A DNA stretch of 54,360 nt, taken from the UHGV virus genome UHGV-1841366; one strand, written 5' to 3'. The stretch is from a virus. Position 1 is the first letter of the stretch. The number at the start of each line of letters is the position of its first letter. The notes under the pieces were generated by a model. It was not told the origin of the DNA. It was given only the letters and a program-made list of their open reading frames with translations, and searched no databases. Shown here piece by piece: positions 5,315-17,217 of the stretch. Both the position numbers and the translations under genes were made by a program.

Positions 5315-6034
5315 ATGAGTGCGCGTCTTAAGAAGCTTATCAAAAAGCGTAAATCTCTTAAAGAACATGCAGAATTGATAAATTTAATTGAAAAACGTTT
5401 TCCAGTCATTTCGGATATTGAGGACTTCTATTGGGTGGAGAAATGTAAAGTTTGGGATGGCATTGATGATGTAAAAGATGTGGATGATTTTGTCAGCAAG
5501 TACAACCCAGACATTAACTACAAACTAGCTGATGATTTTGCTGGCTCGTCTAAAGATGATCCGCTTCCTGATTGGTTTAACATTGATGATTATCCTAGTT
5601 GCATGTGTACCACCTACACCAACAAAGATTTTAGTAAAGCGTGGTTTGCTATTGCTTATGGCTGTTATTTCAATAAGTCCGACGGAAGCAAAAGACCATA
5701 TTTTCTCGCTGAAATAGACTTAACCAGCGGAGAGATTACAGTACACGAAAACCACAGGAATCTAATGAAGCTTGTTGATAGCGTTCGCGTACTGGATACA
5801 GACGCCCAGCAATTAACGAACAATGCATGGTTCGGACTTGATGGAGTAAAAGGGGGTATCGAACTGATAATGGGTCATCTTTTAAATGAATACTCGGACT
5901 GGTATCATCCGCCACACAATCCGCTTGAGTCATTTGACGATCCGCTTGAGCCATTTGACGATCCGCTGAAGGACTACATCGATGAACCAATATATATGAT
6001 GGAATCTTTTCAATTAGATATGATTCCAGCATGA
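5315..6034 (+). CDS. hypothetical acidic protein, paralog of 8730..9377
   Basis: 239 aa, very D/E-rich; shares the block AWF..(16-18 aa)..LAEIDL(T/L)SG(E/K)ITV and a C-terminal LEPLESF/PLESFDD motif with the minus-strand protein at 8730..9377. Confidence 0.55.
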   Translation: MSARLKKLIKKRKSLKEHAELINLIEKRFPVISDIEDFYWVEKCKVWDGIDDVKDVDDFVSKYNPDINYKLADDFAGSSKDDPLPDWFNIDDYPSCMCTTYTNKDFSKAWFAIAYGCYFNKSDGSKRPYFLAEIDLTSGEITVHENHRNLMKLVDSVRVLDTDAQQLTNNAWFGLDGVKGGIELIMGHLLNEYSDWYHPPHNPLESFDDPLEPFDDPLKDYIDEPIYMMESFQLDMIPA

Positions 6035-7955: not shown

Positions 7956-8365
7956 TACATTTGCCTTTATGTAGAAAAAACATCGGGAAGCTGGTGGAAT
8001 CCAATCAGCGGTTGTCGGACAGGTGAGCGGGGAAAATCATTATGACTCTCGTCACCTGAGACATCCAGATTTCTTTCATAGCGTAATCACATACGTGATT
8101 AAGTGGTGTGATTATGTGAAAAATCACGCGCACATAATACGCGAGCGGATACGGAACAAAACAAAATGCAGATTCGCGCCGACAAATAAACGCGGATCAT
8201 AAAGCAAGACTAAAAGCCAATGATTAACTATGCGCTATAGCGCAATATAACGCATTTTAAGCGCGTTAATGTGTTAAGTAATGGGTATGTACTGGCAAGG
8301 ATATAAAAGCGCGTCCATGGCGTTATTTTGGCGCTTATTTTTATGTTGTTGGAGTGAGTTAAAGA

Positions 8366-8391
8366 CAATAAAAAAGCGCCATCATTGGCGC
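8366..8391 (-). terminator. rho-independent terminator (minus strand)
   Basis: GCGCCA / TGGCGC stem with 4-nt loop; on the minus strand it is followed by a T-run (complement of AAAAA at 8371-8375). Confidence 0.55.
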
Positions 8392-8414
8392 GTTATGGTG
8401 GGAGTATTGGAAAC

Positions 8415-8439
8415 GAAAAAAGCGCCCATAGTGGGCGCT
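8415..8439 (-). terminator. rho-independent terminator (minus strand, possibly bidirectional)
   Basis: AGCGCCCA / TGGGCGCT stem; T-run on the minus strand; just downstream of the stop of the minus-strand gene 8445..8675. Confidence 0.6.
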
Positions 8440-8444
8440 CGATT

Positions 8445-8675
8445 TTATTTATGTAAACTGATTTCAAATCCCATTTCTACAAACGCTTTTAACATTAAAA
8501 ATATATCAGCGTCGTTCACGTCTGCTTTTTTCCGCTCCTGGTCGCTCAATAAGTCAATTTTGCGCGTCGTTTCGTCTATAAGCTCGACTGCGCGCCCAGC
8601 GTAACCAGCGATCCCAGCGATGCGATTAACATAATATTCATTATGGACGTTAACGCCAGCGATTAAAATAATCAT
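8445..8675 (-). CDS. hypothetical protein
   Basis: ORF track; AAGGAG about 10 nt upstream of the ATG on the minus strand. Confidence 0.5.
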   Translation of the reverse strand: MIILIAGVNVHNEYYVNRIAGIAGYAGRAVELIDETTRKIDLLSDQERKKADVNDADIFLMLKAFVEMGFEISLHK

Positions 8676-8696
8676 GCTTTAAAAACTCCTTTAAAT

Positions 8697-8714
8697 GCGC
8701 CCATATTTGGGCGC
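8697..8714. repeat. 18-bp palindrome GCGCCCATATTTGGGCGC (copy 1)
   Basis: Identical 18-mer at 9451-9468; each lies just downstream of a minus-strand gene stop. Confidence 0.6.
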
Positions 8715-8729
8715 ATGATTTATATGGTA

Positions 8730-9377
8730 TTATTCAAAATATGGAAATGCAGAATTTTCTTCATGATCTAATACGAAAGTTTTTTCATTAATATAATTTG
8801 GCGCATTATCGCCAAATGATTCTAGTGGTTCGAGATGATTGAAATCATCTTTTTTAATAAAGTAGGATATATAATAGATACCATCGTGTAAATCAGCCAA
8901 ACCACACCAAATATAATAGCCAATAGGATAACATGCAGGACCACGATTCACATAAACTGTAATTTTTCCGCTTAATAAATCCATCTCAGCAAAAAAAGCT
9001 AATCCGCTTTTTTCCTCTTCTCCTTCTTTTTCTCTGATTTTTCCGTTTAGAACGTCAGCACTTTGAATAAACCACGCTCTAGTAAAATCCGCGTTAACAT
9101 ATGTAGCAAATTCGCCAAAGTCGCAATTTTTGCGCAAGTTGGGTAAATCCTCGATTAAATCGAGATTGATATTTAATTGCGCTGTATTTTCAGCAATAAT
9201 TAGCTCTGCTTTCGTTAATTCCGTGTTATTAAATTCTGGCTTTTTTTCTGGTAATTTGTGCACTACTTCTTTGATTTTGTCAGCGAATTTAATTTTTGAT
9301 TTAATCAATGGAAGACGAGATTCAGCCATCTCTACGAAAGCAGAGATAAAAGATTCGCAAACAGTAAAAGTTTTCAT
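8730..9377 (-). CDS. hypothetical acidic protein, paralog of 5315..6034
   Basis: 215 aa; shared sequence blocks with 5315..6034 (see there); AT-rich. Confidence 0.55.
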   Translation of the reverse strand: MKTFTVCESFISAFVEMAESRLPLIKSKIKFADKIKEVVHKLPEKKPEFNNTELTKAELIIAENTAQLNINLDLIEDLPNLRKNCDFGEFATYVNADFTRAWFIQSADVLNGKIREKEGEEEKSGLAFFAEMDLLSGKITVYVNRGPACYPIGYYIWCGLADLHDGIYYISYFIKKDDFNHLEPLESFGDNAPNYINEKTFVLDHEENSAFPYFE

Positions 9378-9450
9378 ATTAAATTCCTCAATTAAAATCT
9401 GAACCAGATGAATAAAGCTAATATTAGCTTTATTCCGAGTTTTATCTCAT

Positions 9451-9468
9451 GCGCCCATATTTGGGCGC
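9451..9468. repeat. 18-bp palindrome GCGCCCATATTTGGGCGC (copy 2)
   Basis: Identical to 8697-8714; a 24-bp perfect palindrome AATAAAGCTAATATTAGCTTTATT lies next to it at 9409-9432. Confidence 0.6.
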
Positions 9469-9481
9469 TTGATTCCATTAA

Positions 9482-10132
9482 TTACGCTTTAAAAGCATCA
9501 GCTAGATAATTGTAGAAATCTTTTTTAATGAAGCGATATTGTTGAGTACCAGCTTTGGCGCTTCCCATTCCTTTGACTTTCTCAACAAGTCCGAGACGTT
9601 CGCAAAGATTGATTAGCTGGTTAGCTTGAGTATAGCCAGCGTCTAAGCGTAAATCATTTGCTCGCTTAACTTCATTCATTAAATCAAAAACAGCGCCATT
9701 AGTAAAAACTTCTACTTCGTCTTTGATCATGTGAACAAGTGCAAACACGCGTGATCCGCTCATATCGTCTTTGGAGTACTCGCATTTACCAGCTTTGATA
9801 GATTTAACCAGATAAACTAATTTTTCCAGTGAGTAACTGTTAGTCATCGCTTCGCGGAAAAACACTTCTGGTGCTTGTTTGCTTGCTTTAATCGCAAAGT
9901 AAAACACAGCAGACAATTTTTCGTCGTTAACAGCAGACAAAATGTTATTAGAGAAATATTTTAACTTTGTAGAAGCAGCGCGAAGATTATCTTTATCGTT
10001 TTTGGTCAGCGCGCCAGTGCTATTAAGAAGTTCATTCTTTTGCCCCAAGTCGTTAGCTTTTGCACCCAGCTCAGCAGCAACAATATTAGCAGCTTCAACG
10101 ATGTTTTTTTTAGATAATATAATGTTGGTCAT
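9482..10132 (-). CDS. hypothetical protein
   Basis: ORF track, 216 aa; no confident domain. Confidence 0.5.
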   Translation of the reverse strand: MTNIILSKKNIVEAANIVAAELGAKANDLGQKNELLNSTGALTKNDKDNLRAASTKLKYFSNNILSAVNDEKLSAVFYFAIKASKQAPEVFFREAMTNSYSLEKLVYLVKSIKAGKCEYSKDDMSGSRVFALVHMIKDEVEVFTNGAVFDLMNEVKRANDLRLDAGYTQANQLINLCERLGLVEKVKGMGSAKAGTQQYRFIKKDFYNYLADAFKA

Positions 10133-10423
10133 GATTTCAATCCTTAGATCAAATTAGAAAATTTATTTCGTTCTATCGTTAGCGTGTTCGCTTTCGACGA
10201 GTTCAATTATCGATACGCAAAAAAAGATTGCAAGTGTTTTTTCTTAGTTTTTTACAGGGACGAAAGTCCTAGAAATAAAAGCGAGATCGTCGAAGGTGTT
10301 CCCTAAATAAATAATCTACTCCGGCTTTTAACCTTATATATTTATACGGAGTGGAATAGGGGGTATTAAATGAATGGCGTGTAAAATAATAACCGGACTT
10401 AGCCGGTTATTACCCTTATAGAT

Positions 10424-10987
10424 TTAAAATGGAAGGATTCGGTCAACCCAATCGAAGAGAACAATCATTCTTGCATGTTCCCTGATTTTCATCGTCACCT
10501 GACAAGCATCAACGCCTAACGACACTCCCTCTATTTCACGGCCATCCGCCATGTAGACCCTTATAGATCTGCCGTTTTGATGAGCTTTGCGACATATCTT
10601 AAAAAAGTCACGACGTGATGGCTGGTTGTTCACGTAGTCAGGATGTACGGTAAGCCTGTCCGCAAAGTCCCCATCTACTTCTGGAGGTATAATCGTTTCT
10701 ATAGAGCTAACTTTCCCAAGAGGAAGACGAACTCGACGCTCTTTGCTTCTTGGAACGGGTGATAGATCAAGTTTGTTGCGTGATGGTAGTGTTCCCTGTA
10801 CATACATGTTGAATACCTGTCCATCTTCCATCGTGACTTTTACAGGAACAGAGTGTGCCCTCCAGAACATCAAGGTATGTTCCACATTAGAATAGTCTCG
10901 CGGCCATACTTCAGCCGGTATGCCGTATGTAATATCTTTCGTCGTCATATCATTATAAAGTGGTTGGCAATATGTCCATTGTACCAT
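10424..10987 (-). CDS. hypothetical protein
   Basis: ORF track, 187 aa; overlaps the upstream lipoprotein gene by 35 nt, so the true start may be the internal ATG at 10948; no clear ribosome-binding site for either. Confidence 0.4.
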   Translation of the reverse strand: MVQWTYCQPLYNDMTTKDITYGIPAEVWPRDYSNVEHTLMFWRAHSVPVKVTMEDGQVFNMYVQGTLPSRNKLDLSPVPRSKERRVRLPLGKVSSIETIIPPEVDGDFADRLTVHPDYVNNQPSRRDFFKICRKAHQNGRSIRVYMADGREIEGVSLGVDACQVTMKIREHARMIVLFDWVDRILPF

Positions 10988-11372
10988 CCCAGGTAGTGAA
11001 AACCCGATATGTTTTCGAGTCGCCCTGCTTTAGCTTTATTTCTCGTTCCATCCTGGAGGGGTTAAATGCGCAAAGACCTGAACTTTCAATTGATGTCCCA
11101 ACGATCCACTCTCCTTCGTTAAGGTAGAAAGTTGCTTTTTCACCAGGTTCTAGCTTTGCAACCGTTTCTCCATTGATGAAAATGGAAGCGTTACATGCAG
11201 AACCAACCAGCCCTTTGTCTCGAACTATTGTTAAACTAGACTCATGTGGTGTTTGATATTTAAATATTCTGCTTTGAGGTGCATCCTTTGCCTTTGAAAC
11301 AGATATAGACGAAGACGAACATCCAATTAGTGATGTGGTTAGTGTTAGAATAATTAGGTTTGTTACTTTCAT
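10953..11372 (-). CDS. putative lipoprotein
   Basis: N-terminus MKVTNLIILTLTTSLIGCSSSS: hydrophobic signal plus lipobox-like LIGC. Confidence 0.55.
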   Translation of the reverse strand: MKVTNLIILTLTTSLIGCSSSSISVSKAKDAPQSRIFKYQTPHESSLTIVRDKGLVGSACNASIFINGETVAKLEPGEKATFYLNEGEWIVGTSIESSGLCAFNPSRMEREIKLKQGDSKTYRVFTTWDGTMDILPTTL

Positions 11373-11388
11373 ATTTGTCTGACTATGA

Positions 11389-11940
11389 TTAATAGTTAAC
11401 TTGGGTTCTGTTGTAAATGTCTATTAAGAAATCGTCCTGCTTTATGTTTTTACAGGTTTTGTCGAAGGTTAATTCACCTGATAATATGCAGGCGTTGTAT
11501 TTTTCGATAAAAATATTTAATGCCTGCCAATTTTTGAAAAGAAAAGAGAAACCATATGACGACTCGCTGCCGTTTATCAACCCTCGTGCGCTGGGATATT
11601 TGTATAAATTTGAATGTAGCTCTAATTTACCAGGGGCAACGTCGCCACAGGAATTCATAATGACGAACATTTTGGATATATCAAAAGGATAAAAAACTAT
11701 GCCGCAATTTGTCCTGTTGCCTTTAATATCCTTCACGTAAATATAGTGCTCGTAACAATCTTTACGCGAGGCATTTAACCTGTATTGTATTAGTTTGTGC
11801 TCTCCTTTTTGAGAGGGTATTAGGTATCGTGTACGCTTGTCTAAGCAGGATTTCGTCTTTGTACGGTATTGCGACATACTGCTCTTTATTTCCGCTGCAC
11901 TTAGAAAGTTCTCATTAAAAGGCAAATGTCCCATTTGCAC
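11389..11940 (-). CDS. hypothetical protein, homologous to the N-terminal domain of the HNH protein
   Basis: 183 aa; SYGFSFLFKNWQALNIFIEKYNACILSGELT aligns with GYSFAFKNRLSIEMFLITLIDYIDSGKIS of 12186..13166, and GIVFYPFDISK with GICVTPQKIEK. Confidence 0.5.
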   Translation of the reverse strand: MQMGHLPFNENFLSAAEIKSSMSQYRTKTKSCLDKRTRYLIPSQKGEHKLIQYRLNASRKDCYEHYIYVKDIKGNRTNCGIVFYPFDISKMFVIMNSCGDVAPGKLELHSNLYKYPSARGLINGSESSYGFSFLFKNWQALNIFIEKYNACILSGELTFDKTCKNIKQDDFLIDIYNRTQVNY

Positions 11941-11978
11941 CTCCGGTTCTTAAGCATAGATAAGCCTACAAAATTAAT

Positions 11979-12045
11979 TCAGTCGATCAAGATCTTTTTT
12001 CAGCCGGAAGTTTATGTATCAAGAAGTGTGATCAAGTTCACATAC
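11979..12045. repeat. intergenic repeat R2 containing TGTGA-N6-TCACA
   Basis: About 80 percent identical to 13217-13285; palindrome TGTGATCAAGTTCACA at 12027-12042. Confidence 0.55.
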
Positions 12046-12185
12046 TGCTTTGCCAGAAGAATACCATATGCAAAACATTCTATTGCTGTTAAAATTTAAT
12101 CGTTCAGACATAAGGAAGCCCTATACCCTCGACAAATCTTTCTGGTATTGTCGAGGGCATGTTTCACATTTATAGGTAGATAGCG

Positions 12186-13166
12186 TTAATTGGTGTTTTT
12201 GTTCTTCTCTTTTTTGCTAATTTCATCACATGTAAGGTTCATTATGTCTATGTTTTCTTGCTTTTGAAGGTTGCCGACAATTTTTTTGCGCAATTCATAA
12301 AATCGCTCGCGTGGTATAGCTTCCTTGTTGCCGTTGATGTGAAGTATTGCGTGACAGCTAGGGCAGACGGCAATCAGATCTGTTTTTGGGTTCACGCTTC
12401 GTGCATCTTCGCCTTGTGAAAGTGGGACGATGTGGTGAGCGTGTAGCAGCGTTTTCGTTTCTTTGCCGTCAATTTCCTTGCCGTATATTTCCGACATCGT
12501 TCTGCAACATAATTGACACCTGTAGTCTGCGTTTGCCAGAACGTCATTCCTTAACCCGGATACGCGGCTACGATGTTGCGACTGGATTAATCTTGTTTCG
12601 CCCTCTATATATTCCTCAACTTCTTCTTTCTGGAGGTCGTAGCTGATTTCTTCTTGAGTCGGATGGACTTTTTTGTATAGAAGATCAAGATATTTAATGT
12701 CCTCTGTTATATATTTGGAATCCTCTAGCGAGGATATTTTTCCTGAGTCTATGTAGTCAATTAATGTAATAAGGAACATCTCTATCGATAGCCTGTTTTT
12801 AAAGGCAAACGAATATCCAAGATGTCTTCTATCTCCTGAATGAATTGGCGTCCAATGAGATTTCTCAATTTTTTGTGGTGTTACGCAGATACCTTTGCCG
12901 ATATTGTTTACATGTTCCAATAATTGATAAACAGAATTAATGCGGTAAGCATGTGTTACTAAAGAATTTATTTTTCTTGTGCCGACGGAGGATTTTGTCA
13001 TAACAACATGATGAGATATTTGTTTTTTTAAAATCAAATCATACGATGTAGCTTTTTGGTTTTCGCCTTTGTCGGTTTTTTTTATTAAATTTAGTTTTTT
13101 ATTAGAGGCTATTTTCTCTATTTCTTCTCTAACTTCTTTTATCGTCATGTAAGTTTCTTTTGTCAT
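12186..13166 (-). CDS. HNH endonuclease with N-terminal domain of unknown function
   Basis: 326 aa; C-terminal HNH-type motif (CQLCC ... HAHHIVPLSQGEDARSVNPKTDLIAVCPSCHAILH); AT-rich. Confidence 0.6.
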   Translation of the reverse strand: MTKETYMTIKEVREEIEKIASNKKLNLIKKTDKGENQKATSYDLILKKQISHHVVMTKSSVGTRKINSLVTHAYRINSVYQLLEHVNNIGKGICVTPQKIEKSHWTPIHSGDRRHLGYSFAFKNRLSIEMFLITLIDYIDSGKISSLEDSKYITEDIKYLDLLYKKVHPTQEEISYDLQKEEVEEYIEGETRLIQSQHRSRVSGLRNDVLANADYRCQLCCRTMSEIYGKEIDGKETKTLLHAHHIVPLSQGEDARSVNPKTDLIAVCPSCHAILHINGNKEAIPRERFYELRKKIVGNLQKQENIDIMNLTCDEISKKEKNKNTN

Positions 13167-13216
13167 TATAATTCGACCTACTGGAATATCTTGATTTAAG
13201 AGGCTACAAATATCGT

Positions 13217-13285
13217 TCAGCCAATCAAGAAATTTTTTCAGCCGGAGGTTTGTACTTCAAAAAATGTGATGAATGTCACATGCAG
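13217..13285. repeat. intergenic repeat R1 containing TGTGA-N6-TCACA
   Basis: Palindrome TGTGATGAATGTCACA at 13265-13280; adjacent 10-bp perfect inverted repeat CATGCAGGTG/CACCTGCATG at 13279-13306. Confidence 0.55.
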
Positions 13286-13313
13286 GTGCGCTCATACACC
13301 TGCATGTAGACTA

Positions 13314-13913
13314 TTAATCATTCAATAATCTATATTTGCTTTTGATTAAATCTTCACCTTTTCTGGTGAACACAAAACCAAATTGCGATTTTTTGTTCAG
13401 TCGAAGAACTCTGTTATCCAGTGCATCGGTTGACGGAATTAGTGTCTGATCATCTATCCAATTTAGTAGCGTAAGAAAGTTCAGCAACCTCAACGTTGTT
13501 GTGCGAAGCTCTTTCGATATATTTTCAATGCTGGCAATTCGTCTTTCTTTTTTCTTTGGCGTTTCGATTAACTTCGCTTGAGAGGTGGACAATGAATAGA
13601 TATTTTCATTGTCCTCATCAAACAACAGATGTTGGGTAAGTTTGCTAAAAAAACCTCGTGCGGATTCGCTTGATAACACTCCCTCTTTATTCATATCATT
13701 AGTTATTCTGTACAAGAGTGGACCGTACTTCATTTCAGGATAACGTTGATAAAAGTTAAGTAATTCAAAAGCAGCATTAGCACCAACAAGAAAATCAGAA
13801 GGATCGCTGACCTTCCAGAAAGAATGATTTTTCTTAGCGCCTGTGGTGTCAACAAATGATAATTCTTTTAAACAACTCATGATGTACTCCTTTCTAACAA
13901 GTGAGCACATCAT
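13314..13913 (-). CDS. hypothetical protein
   Basis: ORF track, 199 aa (an internal ATG at 13881 is an alternative start); no confident domain. Confidence 0.45.
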   Translation of the reverse strand: MMCSLVRKEYIMSCLKELSFVDTTGAKKNHSFWKVSDPSDFLVGANAAFELLNFYQRYPEMKYGPLLYRITNDMNKEGVLSSESARGFFSKLTQHLLFDEDNENIYSLSTSQAKLIETPKKKERRIASIENISKELRTTTLRLLNFLTLLNWIDDQTLIPSTDALDNRVLRLNKKSQFGFVFTRKGEDLIKSKYRLLND

Positions 13914-13945
13914 AGAATTGGTGGATAGGGGGTAAATATGGAACG

Positions 13946-14224
13946 TTACGGCAACCTGCTCAGTATTTCCTCCAGATCTTCTTTGGTCATATTAGAGTTC
14001 TCATAAATACGCATAATTTTCTCACGAGTCTTAGCAGAGACTCCAACGGCAGATGAAACTTTGTCAAATTCAGCCATTGTCATTGTCTCCAGAATGGCAT
14101 TGATAACTTCAGCCTTAGACATTTTGATATTTTTTTCTTTTAGTTTCACTTGAAACTTTCCAAGTTTGTCATTGGCCTTATCCGACAATGACACCTGACA
14201 ATAAGTTGTTTTCTTTTCGCTCAT
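13946..14224 (-). CDS. hypothetical small protein
   Basis: ORF track, 92 aa; stop-start tightly coupled to the helicase gene (2-nt gap). Confidence 0.45.
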   Translation of the reverse strand: MSEKKTTYCQVSLSDKANDKLGKFQVKLKEKNIKMSKAEVINAILETMTMAEFDKVSSAVGVSAKTREKIMRIYENSNMTKEDLEEILSRLP

Positions 14225-14226
14225 AA

Positions 14227-15786
14227 CTAATCTCGTTTCAGAACTCCAAAATCGAATGTGCCATCAATTGGCAATACACCTTCTGCAAAGCCAGGTGTGG
14301 TGTCGATGATGTGTTTTCGCTCATAAGAGTGAGACAACAGGTATTTGTTGCTAATGTCAATGAAATCAGTGATAAAACACACGTTTGCCTGATTTTTTTT
14401 TGCTCGTAAGCCACGACCGACACGCTGTCTCATTTCAACTTCTGCTTTCCCACCACCAGCAAGAATGACCGCGCCCACGCTTGGCACATCAACACCGACA
14501 TCCAGAATAGTCGAGCCTATTAAAACATCTATTTCGCCAGACGCTAAACTGTTCAGCTTTGCTTGCCTTGTCGTCTGGTTCGATTCCCCATAGATGAAGT
14601 CAACTCTAAGGCCGGACTCTTTCATCATCTCCATCAGGATTTGCCCGTGGCGTTTAAGACGAACCAGAGTCATGCAGTTGAGAGAATGTTGCTTATAGAG
14701 CAATGCTTCTCGTACTATGGCCTCGTTTCGTCCCAAATTATACACGATCCCCAACTGATAAGCTTTTTGGTAGGCAGTGCTCATACCTACCCTAAAATTG
14801 AGGTGTTTGTTGGCAAGTTCTGCCTTGATTCTGACCTCGTCTGGTTTGTAGGCAACTTTATGATAAAGGAAATATGGCTTTGCCAGAATACCTCTATCAA
14901 TCAGGTATTTTTCTGTAACTTTAATTTCAATTCGCCCGGCCACAGCCATCAGACGCATGTTGGCTTCTGTAGAAGCCTTCATGAACGGCGTTGCCGTAAG
15001 CGCCAGGCGATAGTCTGCGTTCGTACATAATCTGGCAATGTCATAGAAATTAGAGCCTGAAGACTCATGCGCCTCTTCCAGAATAAGAAGAGAGACACTT
15101 GAAAGGAAGCGCTTCACTAACTCCTGACGTTTGAGGTGGTAGCTCTTCTTATCTGGTGTTGCATCGCGTGGTGGTTCTTCGAGGAAACTTGCAATAGTTT
15201 GAACTGTAGCGACGTTGATATGTCGTGATACCTGAAACTCACCCGAGCCAATGATTCCAACCTTTTGGTCTTTTAACCACGGTTCGCCATTTTTGGCGCG
15301 GTAGTCGATGGATCTCTGGAAGTTTTCGGCCATCTGAAACATCAGAACAGATCGGGTTGTTAAAAATAATGTCATTCGACCGATACGTGCAGCTGCTTTG
15401 CAGGCAACGTTAGATTTCCCACCACCAGTAGCGATCTGCGCAATCATCATTCCCTCGCGAACCAGTGTTTCCACAGTCTGATCCTGATACGCATAATCAG
15501 GATTGTATGGGAATGGGTTAACCGCCGGATTTGGCTTTCCAAGCGCCGGGGCTTTGTCTTTGCGGATATGAACACATTTGATGCCCGCCTTGTTCAAGTT
15601 CGCCGCTACAGGCTTGGCAAAGCCAGCAGGGAACGAGTTTTTACTCCAGTGGAACATCGTGCTTGTGCCCTTCCAGTCGCCAGTGTCGACTTCGTAGCTC
15701 AACATCTGTTGCACCAGTTGCTTTACCTTGTCATCTGCGCCAGAAATAAGCGCATTTACTGCGTTAGATACAATCCGAACAGTCAT
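14227..15786 (-). CDS. SF2 DEAD/DEAH-type helicase
   Basis: 519 aa; Walker A ATGGGKS, motif II LEEAH, motif III LTATP, motif VI QRVGRGLR. Confidence 0.65.
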   Translation of the reverse strand: MTVRIVSNAVNALISGADDKVKQLVQQMLSYEVDTGDWKGTSTMFHWSKNSFPAGFAKPVAANLNKAGIKCVHIRKDKAPALGKPNPAVNPFPYNPDYAYQDQTVETLVREGMMIAQIATGGGKSNVACKAAARIGRMTLFLTTRSVLMFQMAENFQRSIDYRAKNGEPWLKDQKVGIIGSGEFQVSRHINVATVQTIASFLEEPPRDATPDKKSYHLKRQELVKRFLSSVSLLILEEAHESSGSNFYDIARLCTNADYRLALTATPFMKASTEANMRLMAVAGRIEIKVTEKYLIDRGILAKPYFLYHKVAYKPDEVRIKAELANKHLNFRVGMSTAYQKAYQLGIVYNLGRNEAIVREALLYKQHSLNCMTLVRLKRHGQILMEMMKESGLRVDFIYGESNQTTRQAKLNSLASGEIDVLIGSTILDVGVDVPSVGAVILAGGGKAEVEMRQRVGRGLRAKKNQANVCFITDFIDISNKYLLSHSYERKHIIDTTPGFAEGVLPIDGTFDFGVLKRD

Positions 15787-15868
15787 AAACCTCTTTCCTT
15801 AGTGCCTTTTGTATGTTATTTGGCTATTATAATAAGTAAGCAATTACTTAGTGGATTGTAGCAATAAA

Positions 15869-16549
15869 ATGGATGTAAAAATTACGATTTTGCAGGTTGA
15901 TGTTGCCAACCTTCGCCCGAATACCTGGAACACCAATTCGGTTGGTGCGCAGAATTTTGAAAAACTGAAAGGTTCTATCGAAAAATTAGGCTTTTTTAAA
16001 CCAATTTTGGCTCGTGAAATTGAAGATGGATTTTTTGAAATCCTCGGTGGCGAACATCGCTGGCGTGCCGCTATTGAGCAAGGAATTTCAACGGTTCCAG
16101 TGCTTTCTGTGGGCAAAATTAGCGATGTCGTAGCTAAACAGATGTCACTGGTGGACAACGAGCGATATGGTGAAGACGACCAAATCGCATTGCAACGCTT
16201 CATTGAAGAAATTCAGTCAGAACTTGACTATCAACTGTCTGAAATCGCCCCGTATGACGACGAAATCTCGATGGTTTTAGCAAAAGAGGCGGCAATCGAC
16301 CTTGAAGCACTGGAGGCGTTGTCTCGTGGTAGTGATGAGCCTGTCGATACCGACAAACGAGAGAAAACCGAACGTGTGGGGGCGGAACATCAGACCATGC
16401 GCTTCAAAGTAACTTTCGATGCGTCAGATCGTGTTGCAGAAACCATAAAAAACATCATCAAAGAGCAGGCTATTAACACCGGTAATGAAATGGAGAACGC
16501 TGGTGAGGCTCTGGTGTGGCTGGTCGACTACTACAAGGAGCGTATGTAA
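15869..16549 (+). CDS. ParB/Srx-like nuclease-domain protein 1
   Basis: GGEHRWRAA resembles the ParB GxxRxxA box; start taken at the first in-frame ATG (15851 is GTG); neither start has a strong ribosome-binding site. Confidence 0.55.
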   Translation: MDVKITILQVDVANLRPNTWNTNSVGAQNFEKLKGSIEKLGFFKPILAREIEDGFFEILGGEHRWRAAIEQGISTVPVLSVGKISDVVAKQMSLVDNERYGEDDQIALQRFIEEIQSELDYQLSEIAPYDDEISMVLAKEAAIDLEALEALSRGSDEPVDTDKREKTERVGAEHQTMRFKVTFDASDRVAETIKNIIKEQAINTGNEMENAGEALVWLVDYYKERM

Positions 16550-17217
16550 TGACCAAAAAGTTTGAAATCGTATATCGCGACCCGGCAGATCTTATTCCCT
16601 ATGAGATGAATGCCAAAAAGCATGATGAACAGCAGATCCGAGATCTGGCCGCAGCCATTAAAAAGCGCGGATTTGACCAGCCAATTACGGTCGATAAGAA
16701 CGACGTAATTATTACTGGCCACGGCCGCCGTGAGGCTGCAATTTTTGCTGGACTTGAGCGCGTACCGGTTATTGTTCGCGATGATCTCAGTGATGACGAG
16801 GTTCGTGCGAAGCGCCTTGAAGATAACCGACTTGCCAGCATTGATTACGATGCAATTAAGCTACAGAAAGAGCTTGAGTCGCTTGTTCTGGACGATATCG
16901 AGGTTTTCGGCTTTGAAGAGCGTGAGTTGAATGTTCTCGTTGGCAGCATGACAGAAGAAATGGACACCGACTCGCTAGTTATCGATCTGGGCGAAGAAAC
17001 TAAACGACAGAAGGATGAACACACCGAGATCAGTCGTGAAGTTGCAGCGGAAGAAGTACGTGTTGTCGACGTATTGGGCTTTAAAACGCTCCCTGCTGGC
17101 TCTGCCATTGTTGTTGGTGATTTGCTTGCCCACATGGAAGAAATGACGAGAGAAAGCGGGGTAGACGCATTTGTGGCATATGCGGAGAAGATCTCTTCCG
17201 GGGAGATGGCTGCATGA
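16550..17217 (+). CDS. ParB/Srx-like nuclease-domain protein 2
   Basis: ITGHGRREAA motif; ATG directly after the upstream TAA, with AGGAGCG ribosome-binding site. Confidence 0.55.

Follow-up and report, generated by a model that had tools for sequence, protein, structure and literature searches.

The stretch of DNA analysed here (the window) is the 54,360-nucleotide (nt) virus genome UHGV-1841366, and the region of interest is a block of ten minus-strand genes at positions 8445-15786. Two neighbouring genes of this block encode a 326-amino-acid (aa) protein, in which an N-terminal domain (N-domain) is fused to an HNH nuclease domain, and a 181-aa protein that corresponds to the N-domain alone. 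Comparison with related elements showed a fixed slot between a 188-aa gene and the lipoprotein and FljA-like genes, which holds a regulatory element and one gene for a hypervariable domain of ~170 aa. The two forms of the slot gene are very different alleles of one fast-evolving locus, and their pairing in the window is almost certainly the product of recombination between phage-plasmid lineages and not of duplication in situ. The anatomy and the evolutionary history of the locus can be regarded as nearly certain. Its function is read more tentatively, with somewhat less than an even chance of being right, as that of a McrA-style nuclease in which a YgaC-like domain would act as the reader and the HNH domain as the cutter, aimed at foreign or competing DNA.

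The window was assigned to the SSU5-like phage-plasmids because of its nucleotide matches. The block was 87-89% identical to the Escherichia phages Cyrano, PhiR41_1 and CMS-2020a, in aligned blocks that made up 41-62% of the query, and 78% identical to Salmonella phage SSU5. Divergent ParB-like and ABC-ATPase genes past position 15851 were present in all SSU5-like elements compared. Relatives were compared from Cyrano (L001), PhiR41_1 and SSU5 and from thirteen further contigs of metagenomic or genomic origin; loci are given below by L numbers and homologous proteins by P numbers. The features of the slot in the window are as follows.

13279..13306, minus strand: hairpin (CATGCAGGTG...CACCTGCATG), read from the sequence, immediately downstream of the 188-aa gene's stop codon.
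13201..13281, minus strand: promoter/regulatory element, copy 1, with a CRP-type site (TGTGACATTCATCACA, 13265-13280) and the conserved core CCGGCTGAAAAAATTTCTTGATTGGCTGAA.
12186..13166, minus strand: 326-aa fusion protein, composed of a type-A YgaC-like N-domain, an acidic linker and an EcoKMcrA-type HNH domain.
12657-13166, minus strand: type-A YgaC-like N-domain (residues 1-170), with a guanine-plus-cytosine (GC) content of 31.6%.
12570-12656, minus strand: acidic linker of the 326-aa protein.
12186-12569, minus strand: EcoKMcrA-type HNH domain and C-terminal helices.
12126..12157, minus strand: hairpin (CCCTCGACAA...TTGTCGAGGG) at the end of the HNH cassette, common to L010, L013 and Cyrano.
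12044..12052, no strand: recombination junction of 9 nt, placed by alignment and blastn blocks.
11963..12043, minus strand: promoter/regulatory element, copy 2, with a CRP-type site (TGTGAACTTGATCACA, 12027-12042) and the conserved core.
11389..11934, minus strand: 181-aa YgaC-like protein of type B, which stands alone and is paralogous to the N-domain of the HNH protein.

A preliminary description of this DNA, made from the sequence alone, had noticed that the small protein resembles the N-domain of the HNH protein. This similarity survived a scored alignment, in which the 181-aa protein was 22% identical to residues 4-162 of the HNH protein (expectation value, E, of 9e-7 by BLASTP), and both paralogues matched a single PHROG profile, phrog_31250, and had the same top structural match. 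The length of 183 aa given there was amended, since the most likely start is the ATG at 11934, which lies 5 nt behind the Shine-Dalgarno sequence GGAGG (11940-11944) and yields 181 aa. The duplication that had been proposed did not hold. Positions 12053-17000 were colinear with the loci L010-L012 at 95.7% identity and contained the HNH gene, whose product was 97% identical in aa sequence to P0001, the hairpin behind that gene and the final ~12 nt of a convergent 266-aa gene. Positions 10425-12043 were colinear with L008 at 80.2% identity and contained the promoter element, the stand-alone gene, the lipoprotein gene and the FljA-like gene. Because the L010-type and L008-type blocks meet with 9 nt between them, at a junction that adjoins the second CRP-type site, the pair is best explained as two juxtaposed alleles, the second cassette having taken the place of the convergent 266-aa gene. 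Such a juxtaposition explains why identity is 77% between the promoter copies but 22% between the proteins. The paralogue genes are 251 nt apart, with the hairpin and the full second promoter element in between. As the tandem arrangement was found at 100% identity in an ENA metagenome assembly and in a Logan assembly, it is not an assembly artefact. Adjacent paralogues thus need not stem from local duplication or form a functional pair; here the relatives reveal recombined alleles.

The distribution of the two forms fits alleles of one slot. The HNH fusion and the stand-alone gene never occurred together in 13 SSU5-like loci, 9 IMG/VR contigs and 20 PLSDB plasmids. The fusion was found without a stand-alone gene in L004-L007, L010-L014, L097 and the plasmid NZ_CP027369, and in these L loci the HNH gene, solitary with its own promoter element and hairpin, is the sole slot gene; the stand-alone gene was found without an HNH gene in L008, L002, 19 PLSDB plasmids and IMG/VR contigs. 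Full-length HNH fusions were rare, with five clusters among 5.8 billion proteins and one PLSDB plasmid, and stand-alone members, which measure 162-201 aa, were commoner and more diverse. The family resides on ~105-111 kb contigs of E. coli, Salmonella, Klebsiella and Cronobacter, with one distant copy on a conjugative plasmid. That copy, a stand-alone homologue with 27.8% aa identity (L106, 4947-5486), lies on a 301-kb IncFIB conjugative plasmid of Klebsiella michiganensis, outside any SSU5-like element, among hypothetical genes and with Dsb/thioredoxin-like genes nearby. It offered no clue to function, and no CRP-type site was present upstream of it.

At least three types of N-domain could be distinguished in the alignment. 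Type B occurs both alone (the 181-aa protein of the window, P0007-P0011) and fused to HNH (P0004, P0005). Between the window and P0003 the N-domains were 38% identical in aa sequence and the linker and HNH part 96%; between P0004 and P0002 the respective values were 24% and 91%. The HNH modules followed host lineage, falling into an E. coli and a Klebsiella type, and the N-domains were swapped. Different N-domain types have thus been shuffled onto a conserved HNH module. A further, 162-aa variant stands behind the same promoter in the IMG/VR loci L098, L101, L102 and L103; over its C-terminal half it is only ~30-35% identical to other types.

The regulatory element is as constant as the slot gene is variable. 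In all slot-bearing relatives the order after the stop codon of the 188-aa gene was a hairpin, the palindrome GTGA-N6-TCAC, the near-invariant core CCGGCTGAAAAAAGATCTTGATTGGCTGAA, TTTGTAGGCT and then the slot gene. Across the 7 loci compared, the half-sites of the palindrome were invariant and the spacers varied. The hairpin, which extends 2 nt into the CRP-type site, is kept in the relatives; in L004 and L006, both from Klebsiella, the differences in its stem are compensatory. When the palindrome and the core were searched as one pattern with a variable gap, it was found once in each of 12 slot-bearing relative loci (not in SSU5) and twice only in the lineage of the window. Nine more IMG/VR contigs carried the core, and wherever downstream sequence was available the next gene encoded the same protein family. 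The repeat that had been described as ~70 bp ahead of both paralogue genes is real and measures 81 nt (11963-12043 against 13201-13281, 77% identity). Its 30-nt core occurred just twice in the window (0.00 expected), and both palindromes are perfect CRP consensus cores, TGTGA-N6-TCACA, the sole two in 54 kb (0.07 expected). A scan of positions 8000-16000 against Rfam gave no credible RNA family, and the repeat is thus no known RNA element.

Putative hexamers of a weak sigma-70-like promoter follow the CRP-type site in both copies. Copy 1 has a weak -35 box, TTGATT (13223-13228), a 16-nt spacer and a -10 box, TAGCCT (13201-13206), and copy 2 has TTGATC (11985-11990) and TAGGCT (11963-11968). 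The hexamers fit at ~7 of 12 positions and were not reported by the promoter scan; weak hexamers are what is expected of an activator-dependent promoter. We infer from the conserved site that the slot gene is probably under cAMP-CRP control (cAMP, cyclic AMP). That the CRP-type site is perfect and conserved suggests a link between this accessory gene and the nutritional state of the host. In the most conserved part of the element the heptamer GGCTGAA occurs twice, 21 nt or two helical turns apart, at 13216-13245 and at 11978-12007, where the second occurrence in copy 2 reads GACTGAA; the pair could be an operator for a second regulator.

The 326-aa protein has a composite appearance. Its gene has 31.6% GC in the half for the N-domain and 43.3% in that for HNH, a sharp shift that is consistent with separate origins of the two halves. 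The C-terminal part matched Pfam HNH (PF01844) with 22.5 bits against a cut-off of 21.4, and additionally HNH_2 weakly. The signature RCQLCC...HAHHIVPLS...AVCPSCHAILH was conserved in all six fusion proteins, with the zinc-binding CxxC...CxxC and the catalytic histidines intact. The closest HNH domain of solved structure was that of EcoKMcrA (PDB 6ghc), at E 0.0044 directly and at 4.6e-10 with a profile of the 146 nearest HNH relatives, drawn from 1.84 billion representatives. These relatives came from a profile search with the N-domain whose top 150 matches were swamped by HNH-only proteins, because the profile contained HNH columns, and which was reused for the HNH family; the N-domain itself was matched among those 150 only by P0001, P0004, P0006 and P0012. 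The N-domains of the nearest HNH relatives vary and include EVE, DUF3427, HARE-HTH and others, and these three are found in modification-dependent restriction enzymes (PMC6765204, PMC7897488). In the N-domain of the 326-aa protein, no known family of modified-DNA readers (NEco, SRA, EVE/PUA, DUF3427, winged helix) was detected, and domain searches of the whole protein did not detect HNH_3, NUMOD, AP2 or any other module characteristic of phage homing enzymes.

Both N-domains were instead predicted to adopt the same fold as YgaC (PDB 2g7j; DUF2002, Pfam PF09400), a conserved enterobacterial cytoplasmic protein. The predicted structure of the 181-aa protein was confident and compact. The hhalign alignment of the N-domain to YgaC was colinear over 94 columns, with an E of 0.24 against E. 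coli YgaC and of 0.12 against a low-diversity alignment of 69 YgaC sequences, neither of which is significant, and PF09400 gave no match at E up to 10. Since these tests of sequence homology were not significant, the link to YgaC stays structural. A search of the viral structures in BFVD with the confident model gave no significant match, and neither the N-domain by itself nor a profile of it matched any sequence in the PDB. The literature on YgaC gives no function. The RNA-binding 'YgaC' of S. pyogenes was considered as a clue and rejected, being a different protein that belongs to DUF402. Chromosomal YgaC is highly conserved, the best 80 of 435 confirmed matches (L017-L096; Escherichia, Citrobacter, Klebsiella, Buttiauxella and Salmonella) being 85-100% identical in aa sequence to E. 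coli YgaC. The domain of the phage-plasmids, by contrast, is hypervariable, exceeds YgaC in length by ~60 aa and in some elements is joined to a nuclease. All members of the family are basic (isoelectric points of 7.8-9.5). The stand-alone gene and that of P0007 gave a ratio of nonsynonymous to synonymous substitution rates (dN/dS) of 0.25, which indicates that the stand-alone gene is under purifying selection.

The reading as a reader-plus-HNH nuclease rests on architecture, which is that of the Type IV, modification-dependent restriction enzymes. EcoKMcrA, which the e14 prophage encodes, is a Type IV restriction enzyme (PDB 6ghc; PMC6182155, PMC7145662). Like it, the 326-aa protein has an N-terminal domain in the position of the specificity domain, a C-terminal HNH domain with CxxC...CxxC and HH...H, and a solitary gene on a temperate element; unlike in EcoKMcrA, the N-domain is not NEco. 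The modular combination of reader and HNH also recalls the modification-dependent endonucleases in which PUA, SRA, EVE or DUF3427 domains are joined to HNH, such as VcaM4I, TagI and ScoMcrA (PMC6765204, PMC7897488, PMC6212794). The nearest HNH relatives include proteins with EVE, DUF3427 and HARE-HTH domains; the difference is that the reader of the window is YgaC-like, with no PUA-superfamily or other known reader detected. The fusion protein would accordingly be pictured as a DNA endonuclease whose YgaC-like domain reads the target and whose HNH domain, probably dimeric like that of McrA, cuts it. Its gene would be active in the resident plasmid-prophage, probably under cAMP-CRP, and the enzyme would be directed at incoming or competing DNA; changing targets or an arms race would lie behind the rapid divergence of the reader. 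The stand-alone form would be a version of this binding module that does not cut and is under selection independently, and not an inhibitor of, or immunity factor for, an adjacent HNH protein.

Several observations weigh against this reading. The HNH part of the predicted structure is of low confidence, with predicted local distance difference test scores below 50. The search of the ten proteins of the block against PADLOC-DB v2 left eight without a match and identified no defined defence system; the matches were limited to partial helicase-domain ones (PbeA, mREase_IV) and weak generic HNH ones (E 1.6e-5 and 3.3e-4), so that for the nuclease nothing past a generic HNH domain was recognized. 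Of the defence-type cargo suggested in the preliminary description, a nuclease of restriction-enzyme type, with EcoKMcrA closest, was retained, and a match to a known PADLOC system was not obtained. With the transcription start as guessed, the CRP-type site is centred near -78, not a canonical class I distance, and the promoter hexamers are weak and putative. Most alleles lack the nuclease, and the ancestral role of the family may thus have been unrelated to DNA cutting. In Cyrano, finally, a 33-codon open reading frame (ORF) on the minus strand at ~5340-5445 (MRQFIKTCDLRNIVDDIACDEISKKEKNKNAN, followed by the stop codon) is the remnant of a P0003-type HNH gene. It joins the first 19 and the last 14 codons of that gene at a short repeat (ACDE), and this nearly complete in-frame deletion, which left promoter and hairpin intact, suggests that the HNH gene is dispensable or costly.

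The main rival holds that the YgaC-like domain binds protein or regulates, and is not a DNA reader; the slot gene would then encode a fast-evolving factor that modulates the host or its defences, for example by anti-defence or exclusion directed at a protein, and the rare HNH fusions would be secondary. We consider this rather unlikely. In at least two separate fusions, which involve different N-types, the domain is in frame with a DNA nuclease whose nearest relatives bear DNA readers, all members are basic, and the matches to protein-binding folds are weak. The HNH gene might also be a free-standing homing endonuclease that cuts slots lacking HNH and spreads through recombinational repair, with the tandem as a by-product. 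This reading retains some weight, since the gene is present or absent at one fixed site amid conserved genes, with its own promoter and hairpin. It has left a deletion remnant in Cyrano, and identity to L010-L012 is 95.7% over the HNH cassette and the left flank, compared with only ~75-80% for the right flank. On the other hand, the HNH domain is of the McrA/restriction type with an N-terminal reader and without HNH_3, NUMOD or AP2, and the alternative allele is not empty, being a homologous stand-alone gene under the same promoter. The grouping of HNH modules by host lineage and the swapped N-domains also fit vertical descent with shuffling better, and homing therefore seems improbable to us. 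That the small gene is the remnant of a homing endonuclease, as had also been considered, does not agree with its being the common form and under selection (dN/dS 0.25); the true remnant is the one in Cyrano.

Two further explanations concern the stand-alone gene itself. The idea of a nuclease with a decoy, raised in the preliminary description, would make the 181-aa protein a decoy, immunity factor or inhibitor that competes for the target of its neighbour or blocks this enzyme, and draws on the shared domain, the shared type of promoter, the adjacency of the genes and a tandem lineage stable enough to appear in at least two other assemblies. It was abandoned as very improbable: the two forms replace each other in the relatives, each occurring without the other, their N-domains are of different types and 22% identical, and the junction shows that the pair came from the splicing of two lineages. 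Separate promoter elements, the intervening hairpin and the 251-nt gap argue against co-transcription or coupling as well. The stand-alone gene could lastly be a decaying truncation of an HNH fusion and be functionless. HNH can be attached to a type-B N-domain, as it is in P0004 and P0005, the stand-alone proteins stop exactly at the domain boundary, and an HNH gene can be lost, as in Cyrano. The ORFs are nevertheless intact in many lineages, at 53-72% aa identity and ~20-27% for distant types; with the dN/dS of 0.25, the confident compact model and the conserved promoter and Shine-Dalgarno sequence, decay is disfavoured and the least probable of the explanations considered.

Should the reader-plus-HNH reading be correct, the fusion would be a restriction-type nuclease with a new kind of reader domain, carried by phage-plasmids that are clinically widespread in E. 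coli, Klebsiella and Salmonella. The alleles, some with different N-domains on a constant nuclease and others with no nuclease, constitute a natural set for probing what the domain recognizes. The structural link to YgaC (DUF2002) furthermore provides a testable hypothesis for an orphan protein conserved across the Enterobacteriaceae, and if the YgaC fold were a DNA reader this would be the first functional handle on YgaC. A bolder and, in our view, doubtful extension is that the YgaC/DUF2002 fold could be a previously unrecognised, fast-evolving reader of DNA or modified DNA, serving either as a stand-alone blocker or, fused to HNH, as a swap-programmable nuclease, with both forms switched on by cAMP-CRP in warfare between elements. 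The slot also resembles the hotspots and morons of temperate phages in having one insertion site, conserved flanks and signals, and alternative, AT-richer cargo; it differs from them in that the alternative cargoes are all homologues of one domain family and not unrelated systems.

The remaining features of the block are the following.

14227..15786, minus strand: superfamily 2 (SF2; DEAD/ResIII) helicase, backbone; Pfam ResIII, DEAD and Helicase_C; phrog_16 at 1e-92.
13946..14224, minus strand: 92-aa backbone protein; phrog_1466 at 1.7e-46; in all relatives including SSU5.
13314..13880, minus strand: 188-aa protein (ORF reaches 13913); phrog_13473 at 3.9e-109, matching from residue 12.
10953..11372, minus strand: 139-aa lipoprotein (lipobox LIGC); phrog_890 lipoprotein at 7.5e-51.
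10424..10948, minus strand: FljA-like repressor (Flag1_repress), backbone; Pfam PF03614 at 1.3e-70.
9482..10132, minus strand: 216-aa backbone protein; phrog_1513 at 3.3e-111; in all relatives.
8695..9474, minus strand: second, separate variable slot with a 215-aa orphan gene (8730-9377) and flanking hairpin repeats.
8445..8675, minus strand: 76-aa backbone protein; phrog_1585 at 3.6e-39; in E. coli relatives.
8440-8420 and 8391-8376, minus strand: two intrinsic-terminator-like hairpins that close the block.

The ten consecutive minus-strand genes of the preliminary description were all confirmed as ORFs at their positions, and independent gene calls on a 100%-identical public contig gave the same ten (519, 92, 188, 326, 181, 139, 174, 216, 215 and 76 aa). 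The terminators reported past the end of the block were likewise found, as the two minus-strand hairpins within 8440-8376. The block is indeed AT-rich, at 39.5% GC (37.6% without the helicase) against 46.4% in the remainder of the window, but the contrast is smaller than the 38 against 55% first given, and the helicase is at 46.5%. The view of the block as an accessory operon or island had to be given up. The helicase, 92-aa, FljA-like, 216-aa and 76-aa genes belong to the backbone of SSU5, Cyrano, PhiR41_1 and ~20 other phage-plasmid contigs, and internal hairpins and the conserved promoter element lie between genes, so that the block is no accessory operon and apparently not a single transcription unit. 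A search of the block proteins against NCBIfam gave no family-level assignment.

Among the relatives, the helicase, 92-aa, FljA-like and 216-aa genes were constant, as was the 76-aa gene in those of E. coli, and content varied at three positions, namely after the 188-aa gene, before the FljA-like gene and between the 216-aa and 76-aa genes. The helicase gene has backbone composition, is present in every relative, is divergent from the ParB-like genes and lies outside the variable module. Counterparts of the fairly conserved 188-aa protein, of 178-199 aa (phrog_13473), are encoded immediately upstream of the slot in every compared element but SSU5, which lacks both this gene (window 13314-13913) and the slot. 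The 188-aa protein had no match in Pfam, PDB, NCBIfam or PADLOC; it could be a constant partner of the variable slot gene.

The position before the FljA-like gene is occupied by the 139-aa lipoprotein gene, which is also present in SSU5 and L008, or elsewhere by the convergent 266-aa gene or by genes of 196 or 112 aa. The FljA-like ORF can be extended to 10987, and gene calls in relatives range from 172 to 178 aa; it overlaps the lipoprotein gene unless the start is at 10948. FljA is the Salmonella repressor of phase-1 flagellin, and by analogy its homologue in the backbone of these phage-plasmids may possibly interfere with flagellin expression in the host.

In the second variable slot, the 215-aa gene is bracketed by copies of a 26-nt hairpin repeat at 8695-8720 and 9449-9474, which are 96% identical. 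Window positions 8696-9450 had no counterpart in any compared relative, where a 67-aa gene is found instead, and the 215-aa protein had no PHROG, Pfam or PADLOC match. The gene has 33% GC, and its product shares 85% identity with hypothetical proteins encoded by Escherichia albertii plasmids of 62 kb.

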